A stretch of 39,794 nt of DNA from UHGV virus genome UHGV-0220445, one strand, 5' to 3'. The number at the start of each line of letters is the position of its first letter. Position 1 is the first letter of the stretch. Shown piece by piece: positions 1,485 through 15,569 of this stretch. Source of the DNA: a virus. The translations under genes and the position numbers were made by a program. Under the pieces are notes generated by a model. The model ran no database searches. It was given only the letters and a program-made list of their open reading frames with translations, and was not told where the DNA came from.

Positions 1485-2219
1485 ATGAAAAAGTTGAAAA
1501 GTTTAGAAATCCCTGGAACTGGTTATAAATTCTTTATGGACAACGCGGAGTGTGCACCTAACGCGTTGGAAAAAATACAAAGTCTTATCAACAGCCTTAC
1601 TGAAGAAGCGAAAGAACTGAAGAGCGAGGCGACAAAGGACAATACAGCTAAAATCCAATGCTTAAATCTCGTCTCTTATTGTTTATATCAAGTATCCAAA
1701 ACACTGATTAAAGGCAATATCTATTACGACGATGAAGACACCTCGACACCTGAAGAAAAAGATAGCGATGAAGAACTCTACGAAGATATCTCTACTAGTG
1801 CGGGTCACGCTGCCTTCGATGCTATGGGTGAATCGTCAGGCATCAGATCGTTTGTTGAACAGAACAATTCGACAATAATGATTGAGTACTGTGAACAAAC
1901 AAGCTCCAAGGCCATACATGTTCTTCACGATGTTGCTGCAGGGGTTCGCTGTGAGGCTGAAGCGGTCAGAAAAGATGTATTTGGTGCAGACAGTAATACC
2001 GTGAAAGCGTTTATCAACAGTGCTCTGCTAAATTCTTACTCAAACCTTATAGTCAATGCGGCACTATGCGCAAATTCAGGTGAAGAACACATTGTCATAA
2101 CTGAAACCAAACATGAGCATCAACAGTCACCAACCATAGAAGAGGTAACTGCATTGGCTATCAAACAGGCGAGTGAAATTAGTGATGAAATTCTCTCTCT
2201 GCTAAACAAAACTAAGTAA
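1485..2219 (+). CDS. Hypothetical protein (244 aa) with acidic stretch
   Basis: ORF track; acidic segment YYDDEDTSTPEEKDSDEELYEDI; no family recognised. Confidence 0.5.
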   Translation: MKKLKSLEIPGTGYKFFMDNAECAPNALEKIQSLINSLTEEAKELKSEATKDNTAKIQCLNLVSYCLYQVSKTLIKGNIYYDDEDTSTPEEKDSDEELYEDISTSAGHAAFDAMGESSGIRSFVEQNNSTIMIEYCEQTSSKAIHVLHDVAAGVRCEAEAVRKDVFGADSNTVKAFINSALLNSYSNLIVNAALCANSGEEHIVITETKHEHQQSPTIEEVTALAIKQASEISDEILSLLNKTK

Positions 2220-2299
2220 GACATTGATAATGGCGGTCACAATTTGATTCTTTTCTATAAGAATCCGTTGATCGCCACTACTCCCCTTCCATACCCGCA

Positions 2300-3110
2300 A
2301 TCACATCCTTAAATATCAATAAGTTATAGTTGTTTATACAATCAAGAAAACAACTGAATAACAGATCAACGAAACATCAACGCTTTCACCCGATTTGGTC
2401 TAAAAAATTGACGTTTTCACACATCACTGCTTATACCCGTAATTCTACGCAGCAGACAGCGCCACAGCGTCCAATTTTCACCACAGACGACCCAACACAC
2501 TACCAACAAAAACACACGCTCAAAATCGCTCCCGTTGCGTTACACAACCATATAAACAACTTATTTTCAGGTATAACGAAACAACTAAATAACACATATG
2601 CCATTTCCAAAAACAACCAACCTCTTTATGGCAGGCTACCGAAAAGACCCACCTCTTCTCCCCAGGCTACCGGACAACCAACCTAACTTTCACAGGCAAT
2701 CCGAAAAACATTCATACGCGCGATACCCACGATACGCCATTCCCCCAAATAGCGAAGCACACCAGAATCACTGAAACCCCCAACGAAGCCTGTAACCGCA
2801 AGGATTCTCTCAATCCCAAAAGACACGAAACATAACAATCACGGGAAACGCCATTACCCAATACACGAATAACTACAAAAGCCTTTCACACTCCAGACAA
2901 ACAACTCAAACACAATAACGAAAGCAATCGCCCACCTGCCATTACTCCATAGACGGAGAAGAACAATCACCAAAACGACGAGAACACCCCATAGAAGAAC
3001 CACCGCAAAACTAACGAAACCACATACACCGACAGGGAAAACAACACACCCAATTCACCAACAGAATTAGTCGCCGTATAGAACGTTCTGGAAGGAGTGA
3101 GCATTAACGC
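2300..3110 (+). other. Non-coding tract with strong strand compositional asymmetry (A+C-rich, G- and T-poor on + strand)
   Basis: Manual count of one 60-nt row (2461-2520): A 24, C 23, G 6, T 7; same bias visible by eye across ~800 bp; only a low-complexity ORF overlaps. Confidence 0.7.
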
Positions 3111-3280
3111 CTATAGAGAGGTTGAAACAGATAAAACACGAAGAAAACACAACATGTATAGCGAACAAGACAGGTATGTATAAGTGGGGAGGGAAGGAGT
3201 GGTGTCGCCTCCTTTTTCGTATTTATTCAACTCCTGATTTTATCCCCCGTAACACCCCTACGGTCAGCCTTCGGTCCATA

Positions 3281-3411
3281 CAGGGAAAAGGCTGCATCCC
3301 GCTACAGAAACGGCTGGGTTGCCTTCGGGGAACGGCTGGGGATTTTCAGGGAAACGGTCGAGTTGCCTGTGTGGATTTCGGGAAAAGGCTCGATGCCGGT
3401 TCAGGAACGGC
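3281..3411 (+). repeat. Iteron-like array: six degenerate direct repeats C(A/G)GG(A/G)AA(A)CGGC
   Basis: Copies starting ~3281, 3305, 3326, 3347, 3379, 3402; spacing mostly 21-24 bp. Confidence 0.6.
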
Positions 3412-3730
3412 GGCGTACCGGTATAGCGAGAGGGAGAGTTGCGGCTACCCACCTGTAATGTGCGGGAAGAAGAGAGGCGCTCACGTGCAGGCGAACTTAC
3501 TTACCGCTGGATTCCCTCTGAATGCCCAGCTACAGCGTAATTGTGCCAGACAGCCAACGGGTCACAATCGATTTCAGTAGGTTTTCGGGGAGATGATTAT
3601 TCTGCCCACCAGCCACCTTCGGCCACTAAATCAGAATAATGTAAAAAGTGTACTCGGTACTGAACCTGAAAACTCACTGCCAAAACCACATTCACCGGAA
3701 TAAAATCCTTTTTCGCCTGTGCGTTATTGC

Positions 3731-3764
3731 GATAATAACACCATCAAGAAAACATGTTGTTTAA
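3731..3764 (+). promoter_or_regulatory. Early promoter (TGcGATAAT extended -10) plus leader motif caagaaaacatgttgttt
   Basis: gataat ~3731-3736 preceded by tgc; motif ~3745-3764; ATG 3775. Confidence 0.45.
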
Positions 3765-3774
3765 GGATTGCTTT

Positions 3775-4104
3775 ATGTTTGCAAATATCGACATCAACCA
3801 AATTAAGAAATTAACTCAAAAAGAGTTTGATCAGTTTTATGAGTTAGAAGGTTGGTCTTCCACTCTGATCAATTCGCGGTGGGTGCTTGAGCTGATGACT
3901 CGTGATGACGCACCTGCTTTGATGATTTGCGACATGGGTGAAGATGCTGACTTTATGGATATGAGCGAATTTTGTGTGGACACATACAACCGCAGCCAGA
4001 AGTACTACTTCACATGCGATAGCGAGAATGACGTTATTTCTAAGGTCTATCTTCACCTCGTCCAGCATTGGGACGTTCAGGAGTTTCTTGAAGTATTCGA
4101 GTAA
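3775..4104 (+). CDS. Hypothetical early protein (acidic)
   Basis: ORF track (3754..4104); ATG 3775 has SD aagga 7 nt upstream. Confidence 0.5.
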   Translation: MFANIDINQIKKLTQKEFDQFYELEGWSSTLINSRWVLELMTRDDAPALMICDMGEDADFMDMSEFCVDTYNRSQKYYFTCDSENDVISKVYLHLVQHWDVQEFLEVFE

Positions 4105-4210
4105 CCCCAACCAAAGCCAGCATTGCTGGCTTAATTTCTCTATAGCCGCAGGGAAGAACCTGCATATCGCTCATGCACCTGATCAATATGCTTTGTAGCC
4201 GTTTTCTCAC

Positions 4211-4248
4211 TGGTATTATTTACGCCATTGAGAAAACAAGTTGTTTAC
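4211..4248 (+). promoter_or_regulatory. Early promoter (TGgTATTAT) plus leader motif gagaaaacaagttgtttac
   Basis: Same architecture as other early genes. Confidence 0.4.
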
Positions 4249-4257
4249 GGAGTTGTA

Positions 4258-4569
4258 ATGAAAAAATCATTGGTTCTTGGTCTGGACAAAGACCAGAAGA
4301 GAAAAGAGAAGCCTGCACTGGTTGCTCAATTAACTTTGCTGGACATCGTTGCCAATGGAACCTCTATTCGTCTGTTCCGTGAAACAGCGGTGTCTTTCGA
4401 TAAAAACACCTTTACTCGTTATGTAATGAATGTTCGTCGCCAGCGTGGAAAAGGCTGGATGGCATTTCAAAGAATGTGGCCGGAACATCAGCTCGAACTG
4501 GCTTTGATGGAAGTTAACCGCGTGGCCCAGCAAGAAATTCAGAGAGCATCAGTGATGGCAATAGCCTGA
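4258..4569 (+). CDS. Hypothetical early protein (~103 aa)
   Basis: ORF track (4228..4569); ATG 4258 follows SD ggag. Confidence 0.5.
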   Translation: MKKSLVLGLDKDQKRKEKPALVAQLTLLDIVANGTSIRLFRETAVSFDKNTFTRYVMNVRRQRGKGWMAFQRMWPEHQLELALMEVNRVAQQEIQRASVMAIA

Positions 4570-5729: not shown

Positions 5730-5734
5730 TTATT

Positions 5735-5758
5735 AAGGCCACCAGCATTGGTGGTCTT
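5735..5758 (+). repeat. Conserved stem-loop aaggccacca-gcat-tggtggtctt (copy 1)
   Basis: Near-identical copy at 6206-6229; both directly follow a gene. Confidence 0.6.
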
Positions 5759-5867
5759 AAATGACTTTTAATAACCGAAGGTTAGTTTGAAACCTGGCTA
5801 TCAACTTCCAGAACCTTTCTTGTGTATTCAGCCTGTATTAACTTCTTTTATGCCTTATCTACACTGC

Positions 5868-5901
5868 GATAATTACACCAACAAGAAAACAACATGTTTA
5901 C
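5868..5901 (+). promoter_or_regulatory. Early promoter (TGcGATAAT) plus leader motif caagaaaacaacatgtttac
   Basis: Same architecture as 3731-3764. Confidence 0.45.
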
Positions 5902-5912
5902 GCAGTGAGGAT

Positions 5913-6200
5913 ATGCTCATGACTGATTTCACCATTACCCCTAAAGCACAAAATGTATTCCTTGAATCATGGCTGGACTTGCCGGAAACAGAACAGCAAG
6001 AAATGGATCATGTGGATTATGACGAGCAGGTAAGCACGCGATTCTTCCACTTTGAGGGATGCGTTTACGACATTGCCGACTTCATGCGAGATGACCGCTT
6101 CCCTGGATGGCACGCCAGTTATCCACTAAACGCCTTTGCCATGCTGATGATCCGTGTGGGTGATTCAGGGGATACCATCGACATCGGTCTGCTCCACTAA
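5913..6200 (+). CDS. Hypothetical early protein (~95 aa)
   Basis: ORF track (5787..6200); start at ATG 5913 or 5919 downstream of promoter motif. Confidence 0.45.
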   Translation: MLMTDFTITPKAQNVFLESWLDLPETEQQEMDHVDYDEQVSTRFFHFEGCVYDIADFMRDDRFPGWHASYPLNAFAMLMIRVGDSGDTIDIGLLH

Positions 6201-6205
6201 AGACT

Positions 6206-6229
6206 AAGGCCACCAATGCTGGTGGCCTT
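6206..6229 (+). repeat. Conserved stem-loop aaggccacc-aatgct-ggtggcctt (copy 2)
   Basis: Perfect 9-bp stem; followed by C-rich G-poor tract 6236-6330. Confidence 0.6.
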
Positions 6230-6330
6230 AAATGACCATCCTGTTTCCCGCAGGCTAAAAACACCAACCTCTTACCTCCAGGCAACCGACAAACCCACCT
6301 GTTCCCGTCCGGCTACCGCAACTTTCCACT

Positions 6331-6389
6331 TTGACGCCTTATTCGTACAACGATAATTAACACCAACAAGAAAACAATATGTTATTTAC
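6331..6389 (+). promoter_or_regulatory. Early promoter TTGACG-15-GATAAT plus leader motif caagaaaacaatatgttatttac
   Basis: Best sigma70-like match among the early promoters. Confidence 0.5.
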
Positions 6390-6404
6390 GATAAGGAATT
6401 AATC

Positions 6405-6887
6405 ATGAATTTTATCGCTACTGTAAACGCACCCGCACATGGCAATATCGCTGTAACGTTCTCTGACATTGAAAAACGAGTACTTGGTGCCTGGCGTCAC
6501 AATGAGACGGTAGAACTGTCAGAACAAGAAAAATGCATTATTGCACGCGACATCATTGGCAATCGTCGTTACTCGCGGGTATTTGAGAAAGCGTATGTGG
6601 TAAATTCTGGGTTCGGAACGTTCGTCTTTCCGGTGCGCTCCGGGCGATTCTGCCAGTCCAAGCTGATTGAGTTCGCTACGCAGATTTCTGTCTGGATTAA
6701 AACTCAATCGTCGTTCAAATTTTCCGACGATGAAGCAGTATCGCAGGGGATGCGGATCGCCAACAATGCGATTAAATGCAAAAACATTACGTATACCGCT
6801 GGCGTTGACACATGGAAACTGTTTTGCGCTAACTTTATGCTGAATGTATACGCAAGCAACCGCATCCACATCCTTGATGGCGTGTAA
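6405..6887 (+). CDS. Hypothetical early protein (160 aa)
   Basis: ORF track; SD aagga upstream. Confidence 0.55.
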   Translation: MNFIATVNAPAHGNIAVTFSDIEKRVLGAWRHNETVELSEQEKCIIARDIIGNRRYSRVFEKAYVVNSGFGTFVFPVRSGRFCQSKLIEFATQISVWIKTQSSFKFSDDEAVSQGMRIANNAIKCKNITYTAGVDTWKLFCANFMLNVYASNRIHILDGV

Positions 6888-6920: not shown

Positions 6921-6936
6921 TAGCCACCAGCTGCCG

Positions 6937-7014
6937 CAGGGAAATTTTCAGAAACGGCGAGGAACGTATTCATGAGCCGACGGGAAACGGCCAGGATTTT
7001 TTCGGGAAACGGCG
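6937..7014 (+). repeat. Second iteron-like array (cagggaaa, cagaaacggcg, cgggaaacggcc, cgggaaacggcg)
   Basis: Same repeat family as 3281-3411. Confidence 0.55.
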
Positions 7015-7436
7015 GGGGTCGCCTTTATGTAGAAAACTGAGCGGGAGAAACCCGGAATCGCGCCAGAAATTGCGTAGCGGCGCTGGGGTATCGCTGGTGG
7101 GGGGGTCAGCCCCTGGGCCATCCAGATAGCTTTCGCTATGTGATTATGTGAATCCGTGGGTAAATCACTGTAAGCGCGTACACGTTGCCCAACGTGGCAA
7201 TCATACGCGAGCGGATACGGAACAAAACAAAATGCCGATCTGCGCCGACAAATAAACGCGGATCACATAGCAAGACTAAAAGCCAATGATTAGCCATACG
7301 TTATAGCGCAATATAACGCATTTTGAGCGCGTTAATGTGTTAAGTAATGGGTATGTACTGGTAAGGATATAAAAGCGCGTCTATGGCGTTATTTTGGCGC
7401 TTATTTTTATGTTGTTGGAGTGAGTCAAAGACAATA

Positions 7437-9003: not shown

Positions 9004-9525
9004 TTAAAACGGAAGGATTCGTTCAACCCAATCGAAGAAAACAAGTATTTTTCTGCCGTCTTCTAACTTAAGAGTGACCTGGCAAGCATCAACGCCTCTT
9101 GATACCCCTTCTATTTCACGACCGTCTGCCATGTAGACCCTTATAGATTGGTCGTTTTGATAAGCCTTGCGACATATCGCAAAAAAGTCACGACGTGATG
9201 GCTGATTAACCATCTGTTCATTGTTCAGTGTTAGTCGACCTGTGAATGAAGTGTCAACCTCTTCTATGCCTGACTCAATTGTGCTAATGCGCTCAAGAGG
9301 GAGCCTTACACGATTTGTGTTGCTAAACGGATCTGGTGTGAGGTTCAGCTTATTTCTTGCGCTCAACAGCCCGTAGACATACATGCAAAACACTTGGCCG
9401 TCTTCGAGAGTGACTCTTACAGGAAATTTTGCACTCCGCCAGAAGAGCAAGGTGCGCTCAGCATGTTCGTAGTCTCGCGGCCAGACTTCAGCCGGTATGC
9501 CGTAGGTGATGTCCAATGTTTTCAT
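9004..9525 (-). CDS. Hypothetical protein (173 aa)
   Basis: ORF track; start overlaps the stop of the upstream gene. Confidence 0.5.
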   Translation of the reverse strand: MKTLDITYGIPAEVWPRDYEHAERTLLFWRSAKFPVRVTLEDGQVFCMYVYGLLSARNKLNLTPDPFSNTNRVRLPLERISTIESGIEEVDTSFTGRLTLNNEQMVNQPSRRDFFAICRKAYQNDQSIRVYMADGREIEGVSRGVDACQVTLKLEDGRKILVFFDWVERILPF

Positions 9526-10576: not shown

Positions 10577-12136
10577 CTAATCTCGTTTCAGAACTCCAAA
10601 ATCGAATGCGCCATCAATAGGCAATACACCTTCTGCAAAGCCAGGTGTGGTGTCGATGATGTGTTTTCGCTCATAAGAGTGAGACAACAGGTATTTGTTG
10701 CTAATGTCAATGAAATCAGTGATAAAACACACGTTTGCCTGATTCTTCTTGGCTCGTAAGCCACGACCGACACGCTGCCTCATTTCAACTTCTGCTTTCC
10801 CACCACCAGCCAGAATGACCGCACCAACGCTTGGCACATCAACACCGACATCCAGAATAGTCGAGCCTATTAAAACATCTATTTCGCCAGACGCTAAACT
10901 GTTCAGCTTTGCTTGCCTTGTCGCCTGGTTCGATTCCCCATAGATGAAGTCAACTCTAAGGCCGGACTCCTTCATCATCTCCATCAGGATTTGCCCGTGG
11001 CGTTTAAGACGAACCAGAGTCATGCAATTGAGAGAATGTTGCTTATAGAGCAATGCTTCGCGCACAATGGCCTCGTTACGTCCCAAATTATACACGATCC
11101 CCAACTGATAAGCCTTTTGGTAGGCTGTGCTCATACCTACTCTAAAATTAAGGTGTTTGTTGGCAAGTTCCGCCTTGATTCTGACCTCGTCTGGCTTGTA
11201 AGCAACTTTATGATAAAGGAAGTACGGTTTTGCCAGAATGCCTCGATCAATCAGGTACTTTTCTGTGACTTTAATTTCAATTCGACCGGCCACAGCCATC
11301 AGACGCATGTTGGCTTCTGTAGAATCCTTCATGAACGGCGTGGCCGTAAGCGCCAGACGATAGTCTGCGTTCACACATAATCTGGCAATGTCATAGAAAT
11401 TAGAGCCTGAAGACTCATGCGCTTCTTCCAGAATAAGCAGAGACACACTTGAAAGGAAGCGTTTCACTAGCTCCCGACGTTTGAGGTGGTAGCTTTTCTT
11501 ATCTGGTGTCGCATCGCGTGGTGGTTCTTCGAGGAAACTTGCAAGAGTTTGAACTGTAGCGACGTTGATATGTCGTGATACCTGGAACTCACCCGAGCCA
11601 ATGACTCCAACCTTTTGGTCTTTTAACCACGGTTCGCCATTTTCGGCGCGGTAGTCGATGGATCTCTGGAAGTTTTCGGCCATTTGAAACATCAGAACAG
11701 AGCGGGTTGTTAAAAATAATGTCATTCGACCGATACGTGCAGCTGCTTTGCAGGCAACGTTAGATTTCCCGCCACCAGTAGCGATCTGCGCAATCATCAT
11801 TCCCTCTCGAACCAGTGTTTCCACAGTCTGATCCTGATACGCATAATCAGGATTGTATGGGAATGGGTTAACCGCCGGATTTGGTTTACCAAGCGCCGGG
11901 GCTTTGTCTTTGCGGATATGAACACATTTGATGCCCGCCTTGTTCAAGTTCGCCGCTACAGGCTTGGCAAAGCCAGCAGGGAACGAGTTTTTACTCCAGT
12001 TGAACATCGTGCTTGTGCCCTTCCAGTCGCCAGTCTCGACTTCGTAGCTCAACATTTGCTGCACCAGTTGCTTTACCTTGTCATCTGCGCCAGAAATAAG
12101 CGCATTTACTGCGTTAGATACAATCCGAACAGTCAT
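10577..12136 (-). CDS. Superfamily-2 DNA/RNA helicase (DEAH-like)
   Basis: Motif I AQIATGGGKS, motif II LILEEAH, motif III TATP, motif VI QRVGRGLR. Confidence 0.8.
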   Translation of the reverse strand: MTVRIVSNAVNALISGADDKVKQLVQQMLSYEVETGDWKGTSTMFNWSKNSFPAGFAKPVAANLNKAGIKCVHIRKDKAPALGKPNPAVNPFPYNPDYAYQDQTVETLVREGMMIAQIATGGGKSNVACKAAARIGRMTLFLTTRSVLMFQMAENFQRSIDYRAENGEPWLKDQKVGVIGSGEFQVSRHINVATVQTLASFLEEPPRDATPDKKSYHLKRRELVKRFLSSVSLLILEEAHESSGSNFYDIARLCVNADYRLALTATPFMKDSTEANMRLMAVAGRIEIKVTEKYLIDRGILAKPYFLYHKVAYKPDEVRIKAELANKHLNFRVGMSTAYQKAYQLGIVYNLGRNEAIVREALLYKQHSLNCMTLVRLKRHGQILMEMMKESGLRVDFIYGESNQATRQAKLNSLASGEIDVLIGSTILDVGVDVPSVGAVILAGGGKAEVEMRQRVGRGLRAKKNQANVCFITDFIDISNKYLLSHSYERKHIIDTTPGFAEGVLPIDGAFDFGVLKRD

Positions 12137-15471: not shown

Positions 15472-15505
15472 CTTCGTAAGACATGCCAGACCTAATTAAA
15501 CACCC

Positions 15506-15569
15506 CAGAAAACAAGTTGGTTAGCAGATGCAGTAAACAAGTTGTTTTAGAGCGCATGGACGCGCTCTG
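15506..15569 (+). promoter_or_regulatory. Two copies of early-type motif (gaaaacaagttggtt, gtaaacaagttgtttta) followed by hairpin agagcgc-atggac-gcgctct
   Basis: Sequence pattern directly upstream of 15588 start. Confidence 0.4.

Follow-up and report, generated by a model that had tools for sequence, protein, structure and literature searches.

The locus and its source replicon

Here, we describe a long non-coding tract, extremely rich in A and C on the plus strand, in the virus genome UHGV-0220445, together with the stem-loop that precedes it. The window, by which we mean the whole stretch of 39,794 nucleotides (nt) that was analysed, is identified by its matches to Cyrano-like phages, plasmid records, and Salmonella phage SSU5 as a fragment of an SSU5-type phage-plasmid. 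The region from 2200 to 3250 is 94-97% identical to four Escherichia coli phage records of about 108 kb (Cyrano, OV696614; PhiR41_1; and two CMS-2020a records), with 97% identity between Cyrano and the window at the tract itself, and SSU5 also carries the tract, at 66% identity. A more sensitive search found tract homologues in 839 plasmid records, 811 of them non-mobilizable, with Klebsiella (431), Escherichia (224), Enterobacter (90), and Salmonella (49) among the genera. The plasmid loci that were fetched are of the IncFIB replicon type, except for one rep_cluster_763 plasmid. Literature searches returned no description of such an A+C-rich element in the searchable library.

The tract of Cyrano lies at 94.3-95.3 kb of the phage genome within a long series of plus-strand genes, flanked by a variable accessory-gene block on one side and by a conserved cluster of small genes on the other. 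In the window, the gene on the accessory side is the cargo gene listed in Table 1; the stem-loop starts 12 nt past its stop codon at 2219, and it is from here rightwards that lineages with different cargo are homologous. Of 34 homologous loci, 29 have a plus-strand open reading frame (ORF) that stops shortly before the stem-loop, mostly 15-77 nt and in a few loci 241 nt away. These preceding ORFs have at least eight different lengths, and the element is therefore a common 3' end for whichever cargo gene is last.

The stem-loop folds with -19.1 kcal/mol (z = -4.6; z = -4.8 for the consensus fold). No lineage departs from the sequence of its outer stem, and pairing of its inner stem is kept with differing sequences. 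It is followed directly by ACUACUCCCC. It is a candidate protective hairpin for mRNA 3' ends.

Table 1. Features of the tract, its surroundings, and the second locus (window coordinates)
Feature	Position	Strand	Description
A+C-rich, G-/T-poor non-coding tract	2280..3110	+	Composition, poor folding, no conserved ORF, bias in 40 loci
Two-tier stem-loop without U-run	2231..2277	+	Outer stem GGCGGTCA/TGATCGCC, inner stem GATTCTT/AAGAATC
Most conserved block	2342..2440	+	92-98% column conservation; opens with AAGAAAACAA; contains TTGACG-18-TATACC (2408-2437)
Three tandem 31-nt repeats	2611..2702	+	ACC(C/A)ACCTCTT-N5-6-CAGGCTACCG-AAAAG; conservation 0.87-0.95
Motif in three copies	2734..2966	+	ACGCCATTAC(C/T)..ATAC.CGGAGAAGAAC; starts at 2734, 2848, 2936
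About six 22-nt repeats	3283..3425	+	Core GG(G/A)AA(A/C)GG; past the tract; iteron-like look
Upstream cargo gene	1485..2219	+	244 amino acids (aa), phrog_20845, equivalent to CYRAN_102; other lineages carry a different gene
Second, short copy of the layout	6205..6330	+	Stop of gene 5787-6200, stem-loop 6205-6230 without U-run, C-rich repeats 6236-6330
Second 22-nt GGRAAMGG array	6930..7020	+	About 600 bp past the second 31-nt array; order and spacing as at the first locus

Base composition

From 2300 to 3110 (811 nt), the plus strand is composed of A 0.391, C 0.303, G 0.129, and T 0.176, with a C/G ratio of 2.34 and an overall 69% A+C and 43% G+C; the corresponding fractions for the whole window are A 0.284, C 0.221, G 0.248, and T 0.247. 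These values confirm the dominance of A and C that an earlier, sequence-only reading of this DNA had asserted. The spot count that it gave for 2461-2520 was right for G (6) and T (7) and had the other two bases interchanged, the real numbers being 24 C and 23 A. Windowed composition and C-over-G skew, which that reading had proposed to compute, single out the tract, with no other such stretch in the window. Windows of 200 nt have a mean A+C content of 0.505 ± 0.051, and all those at 0.68 or above are confined to 2333-3178. The maximal-scoring A+C segment spans 2479-3066, with 74% A+C.

The bias also stands out on larger scales. Over 600 nt, A+C peaks at 0.735 in the tract, compared to a maximum of 0.605 in the rest of the window, and 222 kb of unrelated bacterial contigs gave 0.504 ± 0.037 with a maximum of 0.645, which places the tract about 6 standard deviations higher. 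In the complete genome of Cyrano, the tract is the sole stretch with A+C of at least 0.64, and it opposes the genomic trend, a steady excess of G over C on the plus strand elsewhere. Nothing comparable was detected in the first 50 kb of phage P1, where A+C reached at most 0.587.

Coding potential and RNA folding

No reading frame in the tract is open across lineages, and frame and length differ even between relatives of 94% identity. The longest tract ORFs had no Pfam match at E ≤ 1, and tblastn comparison of the neighbouring proteins with the tract revealed no trace of them, which also disposes of a pseudogene of a neighbouring gene. The absence of a credible ORF, stated in the sequence-only reading, is thereby borne out, and the homology by which it would have recognized a degraded coding region was not found. 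The Prokaryotic Genome Annotation Pipeline leaves the region free of genes in most plasmids. The Cyrano annotation calls ORFs there, namely CYRAN_103 (118 aa, window 2330-2686) and CYRAN_104. Stop codons are few in A+C-rich DNA, and open frames therefore arise readily; we consider these ORFs and their equivalents to be probable artefacts.

RNA from the tract is exceptionally poor in structure. The plus-strand RNA (671 nt) folds with -84 kcal/mol, half as much as its complement; neither strand departs from shuffled sequences. Per 300 nt, folding energies within the tract range from -24 to -39 kcal/mol versus -83 ± 14 kcal/mol for the window. Of the six 300-nt segments of the window that fold least, five fall in the tract. 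The consensus minimum free energy inside the tract was close to 0 for 10 lineages; some segments with low z-scores were considered as conserved RNA structures and rejected, their energies amounting to no more than 5 kcal/mol. Rfam 15 yielded no match in the whole window at gathering thresholds and none in 2150-3800 at E ≤ 1. The weak folding, the consensus energy, and the lack of an Rfam match exclude a structured RNA, one of the alternatives raised previously.

Conservation and selection

Comparison with related phages, also suggested in that reading, was extended to 40 homologous loci from IMG/VR, plasmids, phages, a Buttiauxella genome, and one contig of a metagenome-assembled genome, down to about 60% identity. 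The pattern used to scan contigs was too loose and returned mostly chance matches, with only the Buttiauxella locus (L060) and the metagenomic contig (L072) being homologous. Over the 600 nt past a shared anchor, all 40 loci keep the bias, with A+C from 0.64 to 0.74, compared to values near 0.5 for the chance matches to this anchor.

In an alignment of the tract from 13 lineages (about 50-97% identity), invariant columns have 74% A+C and variable columns 66.5%. Columns with A<->C transversions number 73 and are as frequent as either class of transitions, versus 11 columns with G<->T. In an orthologous gene nearby, four-fold degenerate sites show 27-36% identity between lineages and are thus saturated. 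Since neutral sites are saturated, drift would have wiped out the bias, and the composition is therefore under selection. Constraint on the tract sequence clusters in islands in the conservation profile, and the length between fixed landmarks is nearly constant across lineages (621-681 nt). The sequence, besides the composition, is thus constrained, though less than raw identity implies. One IMG/VR locus (L019; UViG 2617270940_000004) diverges abruptly within the tract, from about 2930 on, into sequence resembling the end of an insertion sequence (IS). Thus, the plasmid state, at least, tolerates a broken tract.

Repeats and a second locus

Beyond composition, the tract and its downstream flank contain several families of repeats. 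The AAGAAAACAA that opens the most conserved block is a half-copy of a promoter/operator module of the early genes, described below. The promoter-like TTGACG-18-TATACC in this block is present in 13 of 13 lineages and scores only about 7 bits. The 31-nt repeats emerged from a repeat search of the window, SSU5, and Klebsiella loci. The motif delimited by ACGCCATTAC and CGGAGAAGAAC occurs in three to six copies per lineage, with five to six in SSU5, and is the most recurrent 7-mer in six of six lineages. Past the tract, copy number in the 22-nt array shifts by whole units between lineages. An insertion of 42 to 50 nt at 3119-3168, restricted to the E. coli lineage, carries a promoter/operator-like module (GATAAA...AAGAAAACAcAACATGT) directed into the 22-nt repeat region, and this repeat region is weakly expressed in LF82 (CYRAN_104, about 0-20 fragments per kilobase per million [FPKM]).

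The same arrangement recurs further downstream. The sequence-only reading had noted a shorter tract of the same type at 6236-6330, after a conserved stem-loop, and this holds: the stretch has C 0.43 and G 0.13 and contains three further copies of the 31-nt repeat, and the stem-loop at 6205-6230 folds with -19.4 kcal/mol and contains a Chi site. The layout is kept in SSU5, Klebsiella, Enterobacter, and Cronobacter loci. At this second locus, the 31-nt and 22-nt arrays bracket a gene (6405-6887; 160 aa; phrog_1641), an organization conserved in all lineages examined. The 160-aa protein had no match in PDB, Pfam, or NCBIfam, and a single-sequence AlphaFold model was unusable (pLDDT 41.8).

A proposed Rho-dependent termination zone at the cargo boundary

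We give about even credence to the reading that the tract is a Rho-dependent termination zone, acting as an insulator at the right edge of the variable cargo region. We prefer it because it brings together an untranslated and unstructured RNA with a large excess of C over G, a hairpin followed by putative Rho utilization (rut) sequence, the context of the upstream genes, and a drop in RNA across the boundary. Windows of 78 nt with a C/G ratio of at least 3 are found at 2234-2362, 2452-2671, and 2828-2957, the first beginning 15 nt past the stop codon. RhoTermPredict-style criteria (C/G above 1 and six C residues 11-13 nt apart in 78-nt windows) are passed by 437 of 841 tract windows compared to 8.8% window-wide. 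A consensus scan found no intrinsic terminator after 2219, in agreement with the sequence-only reading, and the stem-loop at this position lacks a U-run. Matches to the pause motif GG-N8-YG number two in 2200-3110 (at 2235 and 2630), and the tract contains no conserved hairpins.

Rho-dependent transcripts of E. coli were reported to end at stem-loops that protect from exonucleases, with rut sites located directly downstream (Dar and Sorek 2018, PMC6061677). The layout at the tract, a stable stem-loop without U-run and at once a C-rich stretch, resembles that set in the stem-loop position and in the steep fall of RNA, and it recurs at 6205-6330. Published, strand-resolved RNA-seq of E. coli LF82, a host strain of Cyrano, given as gene-level values with no coverage trace, provides the expression data. 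The upstream gene CYRAN_102, classed by the authors of that study as a moron expressed in lysogeny, has log2(FPKM+5) values of 5.6-9.2 (45-590 FPKM after conversion), and CYRAN_103 has 2.32-4.27 (0-14 FPKM). RNA thus falls 8- to 270-fold within at most a few hundred bases in 10 of 10 samples. Literature searches of the available library found no lytic-phase or Rho-inhibition transcriptome for the SSU5-like phage-plasmid family.

From these observations, we infer Rho as the cause of the drop, the hairpin as the mature 3' end, and insulation as the selected function. Transcripts of the last cargo gene, which is expressed in lysogeny, would continue past the stop codon at 2219, where ribosomes would drop off, and the nascent RNA, being C-rich, G-poor, and unfoldable, would load Rho. 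Rho would then free RNA polymerase inside the following few hundred bases, and exonucleases would trim the RNA back to the stem-loop at 2231-2277, which would shield the cargo mRNA. The downstream early genes, with their own promoters and a shared palindromic candidate operator, would thereby be protected from read-through.

The tract has features in common with known Rho-dependent elements and differs from them in scale. With Rho terminators of E. coli and its phages, such as lambda tR1 with rutA and rutB, it shares a C-rich, G-poor, unstructured, and untranslated RNA right after a gene. Known rut sites, however, are about 80 nt long, whereas the tract, for which Rho dependence is predicted, extends over about 800 nt with 69% A+C and conserved repeat islands. 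Likewise, described Rho terminators show a mere excess of C over G, in contrast to the extreme amino (A+C) skew of the tract and the conservation of the unit in hundreds of replicons. In the rho, mgtA, corA, and rpoS leaders and at the P4/N15 'timm' terminator, Rho gates downstream genes through long untranslated stretches, and in the case of 'timm' it controls the lysogeny-lysis decision of a plasmid-prophage. Such Rho-targeted leaders are ruled by leader peptides, riboswitches, or small RNAs. At the tract, however, no conserved leader ORF, structure, or antisense partner of the repeats was found, and the genes downstream of it have their own promoters.

Several points weigh against Rho-dependent termination as a full account. 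The C-over-G criteria lack specificity, and decay or processing linked to the hairpin could account for the fall in RNA just as well as Rho. A rut site needs about 80 nt, so that the roughly 800 nt of the tract represent a tenfold excess that Rho does not explain. Identity of the tract to distant lineages is 72-76%, compared to 63-65% for composition-matched shuffles (z about 4-7), and Rho is not known to make use of the conserved islands, the 31-nt repeats, or the GCCATTAC motifs. Two -35-like hexamers, TTGAC(A/G), are kept in 12-13 of 13 lineages, with poor -10 elements. In the Klebsiella lineage, moreover, the adjacent gene (DUF262, with a type I restriction-modification system) is divergent, and the stem-loop and the A+C bias are still kept, a persistence that a simple rut site leaves unexplained. 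The Rho proposal made in the sequence-only reading thus has partial and indirect support: all sequence-level features and the RNA drop are in place, and the length, the islands and repeats, and the persistence in Klebsiella are not accounted for.

A possible leader or non-coding RNA with its own promoter

The conserved -35-like hexamers and the features that Rho leaves unexplained suggest that the tract may have its own lysogen-silent promoter, and they therefore keep a lytic leader or attenuator model alive. According to this model, which we regard as unlikely but worth serious consideration, the tract would be transcribed from this promoter as a non-coding RNA or a long untranslated leader, with the promoter repressed in lysogeny and active in lytic growth. 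Its structure-free RNA might act as a conditional attenuator or bind a protein via the GCCATTAC..CGGAGAAGAAC and 31-nt motifs, an elaboration about which we are similarly doubtful. Candidate start sites are TTGACG-18-TATACC at 2408-2437 and a site at about 2224-2251. The block around the former is the most conserved part of the tract, sequence islands are conserved beyond composition, and the Klebsiella lineage keeps the tract without any co-directional gene to feed it. Silence in the lysogen is what would be expected of a lytic-phase RNA; it also means that no expression of such an RNA was seen in the LF82/Cyrano lysogen RNA-seq. The two candidate promoters are weak, scoring about 7 bits and having no T at -7, and there is no convincing closing terminator: the hairpin at 3186-3222, tried as one, was rejected as neither significant (z = -0.7) nor conserved.

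If such an RNA served to titrate a protein, its motifs would be expected to resemble those of known sponges. CsrB/RsmZ, which bind CsrA, and CrcZ, which binds Hfq, are likewise long non-coding sequences with recurring short motifs; their defining motifs, however, are not enriched in the tract, which is not expressed in the lysogen. Runs of (ARN)≥4, characteristic of Hfq sponges, cover 0 nt versus 10.8 ± 10 expected, and GGA, the CsrA motif, occurs 7 times in the tract versus 6.1 ± 1.8 expected. The CsrA test also took in the GGGAAACGG array; GGA is not enriched and is only partly conserved. Thus, the decoy or sponge RNA that had been named as another alternative in the sequence-only reading finds no support for either protein, and both sponge types were rejected. 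A decoy for the FljA-like repressor encoded in the window was also considered and rejected: the E. coli fliC 5' untranslated region (5'UTR) scored 20 against the tract, compared to 18.7 ± 2.8 for shuffles.

A possible DNA-level element

We consider it quite improbable that the tract functions at the DNA level, either as a T4-type lytic origin, at which an unstructured origin transcript would prime replication via an R-loop and later be removed by a UvsW-like helicase, or as a scaffold for proteins bound to phased repeats. In favour of such a role, the repeats recur every 31 and 22 bp, or about three and two helical turns, both arrays are present a second time with order and spacing (about 600 bp) unchanged, and the 22-nt array changes by whole units. 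The phage encodes T4-like UvsW (10577-12136), UvsX, UvsY, a gp32-like single-stranded DNA-binding protein (SSB), and RNase H. It thus shares this set with T4, whose origins oriF (uvsY) and oriG (gene 34) also have A+C-leaning, G-poor leaders. In T4 oriF (L088, 2322) and oriG (L089, 4948), the roughly 50 nt past the origin promoters have 66-67% A+C and are G-poor, which is close to the highest values that T4 reaches over such lengths (0.50 ± 0.06). Origin transcripts that form R-loops may share an A+C lean in general.

T4 origin elements are about 50 nt long, A+T-rich, and located behind a strong middle promoter, whereas the tract has 800 nt, 43% G+C, and weak promoter-like sites, and it bears no energetic or skew signature of an origin. 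At this G+C content it is not easily melted. Its hybrid-minus-duplex energy, calculated with RNA:DNA and DNA:DNA nearest-neighbour parameters, is not favourable (0.277 versus a window mean of 0.244 ± 0.027) and is average on both strands, and the cumulative GC skew of the whole Cyrano genome climbs monotonically with no turning point at the tract. The hybrid energetics and the skew lend no support to an R-loop-prone origin region, as earlier entertained. Moreover, C-rich unstructured RNA would be an ideal Rho substrate, which runs counter to a lasting R-loop, and the variant L019 has its IS insertion within the tract.

The plasmid origin lies elsewhere. RepA iterons (CTCTATAGTGGWT) and DnaA boxes are found at 60.4-62.4 kb in Cyrano, 33 kb away from the tract; these iterons are unlike the 22-nt GGRAAMGG repeats, and the repeats of the tract are unrelated to them, so that the tract was rejected as part of this origin. 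Further DNA-level candidates were discarded as well. A partition site was considered, with ParA encoded at 29 kb, and the likeness of CGCCATT to P1 parS boxes was judged to be due to chance. A G-quadruplex on the G+T strand was dismissed since the C-runs, assessed by eye, are 20-100 nt apart and thus too distant.

It is conceivable, if rather improbable, that the block of 1.2 kb as a whole, comprising the hairpin, the 0.8-kb tract, and the 31- and 22-nt arrays, with a mini duplicate around 6405-6887, is an undescribed dedicated control element, either a lytic origin or a regulated Rho gate. In the first form, an unstructured origin transcript would fire replication with the T4-like UvsW/UvsX/UvsY machinery. 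In the second, a phage factor acting on the repeats would open the gate and couple transcription of the cargo region to the lysogeny-lysis switch.

Finally, it is very improbable that the tract is what is left of a coding region, or a compositional relic, and has no present function: the ORFs called by annotators, such as the 118 codons of CYRAN_103, are of the kind that A+C-rich DNA opens easily, the open frames differ even between close relatives, with neither Pfam matches nor tblastn traces of neighbouring genes, the bias is held at variable sites where neutral sites are saturated, and the element is present in the 839 plasmid records.

Neighbouring features of the phage-plasmid

Five small early genes share a promoter/5'UTR module (1057-1147, 3693-3782, 4176-4270, 5830-5925, and 6314-6409), and a weaker copy is found at 15493-15526. 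It has the form (C)TTT..GCC as the -35 region, GATAAT or TATTAT, 9-10 nt, AAGAAAACAA(gt)TGTTTA, a Shine-Dalgarno sequence, and ATG, and it is kept in the SSU5 and Klebsiella lineages. The AAACAA-N-TTGTTT palindrome past the -10 hexamer looks like a candidate operator for a common repressor. A hidden Markov model of 12 early-gene modules recovers the five real modules at E values of 1e-16 to 1e-23 and matches the tract only at E 0.45; the tract was therefore rejected as an array of disabled modules.

Chi sites (GCTGGTGG) number 13 in the window versus 0.8 expected from shuffles, for example at 3606, 5739, 6218, 6924, and 7093. Five lie within 3.6-7.1 kb, two of them forming part of the strong stem-loops at 5733-5760 and 6205-6230, where they face opposite ways, and an inverted repeat, ATTATTCTG...CAGAATAAT, at 3597-3640 encloses a third. 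The tract itself contains none, and the orientation logic misfits; a Chi/RecA hotspot was rejected as its function.

The minus-strand gene at 9004-9525 encodes a protein of 173 aa with a match to Pfam PF03614, 'Repressor of phase-1 flagellin' (FljA-like; E 3e-69). FljA blocks translation of fliC mRNA, and the phage-plasmid may thus silence the flagellin of its host. The phage-plasmid carries a T4-like set of a UvsW-like superfamily 2 helicase, UvsX/RecA, UvsY, a gp32-like SSB, SbcCD, and RNase H, and further encodes a Pol III alpha, a primase, and a helicase of its own. These replication and recombination genes are located at 10577-12136 on the minus strand of the window and at 52-58 kb and 103.5-105 kb in Cyrano. 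Their presence suggests T4-style lytic replication, dependent on origins and on recombination.

At the left end of the window, positions 1-850 are unrelated to Cyrano, with 33% G+C and no match in the plasmid collection; homology to Cyrano begins at 851, inside the 3' end of a metG-like gene. Positions 1-136 match the reverse complement of 463-598 at 100%, and positions 137-218 likewise match that of 613-694. Such a perfect fold-back of 218 nt at a sequence end suggests a contig-end assembly artefact or a recent insertion.

Implications for SSU5-type phage-plasmids

SSU5-type phage-plasmids are frequent among clinical isolates of Klebsiella, E. coli, Enterobacter, and Salmonella, and their variable cargo region is where genes for resistance, defence, and toxins gather. 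If the tract is a Rho-dependent termination zone, a fixed and very strong terminator and insulator would explain how cargo is expressed in the lysogen without activation of the adjacent early genes, and the tract would represent a natural, portable, and orientation-dependent insulator of about ten rut-lengths. Should it turn out to be an origin or a regulated gate, this phage-plasmid family would have its first defined control element. Either way, the largest conserved non-coding region of SSU5-type replicons now has a testable function.

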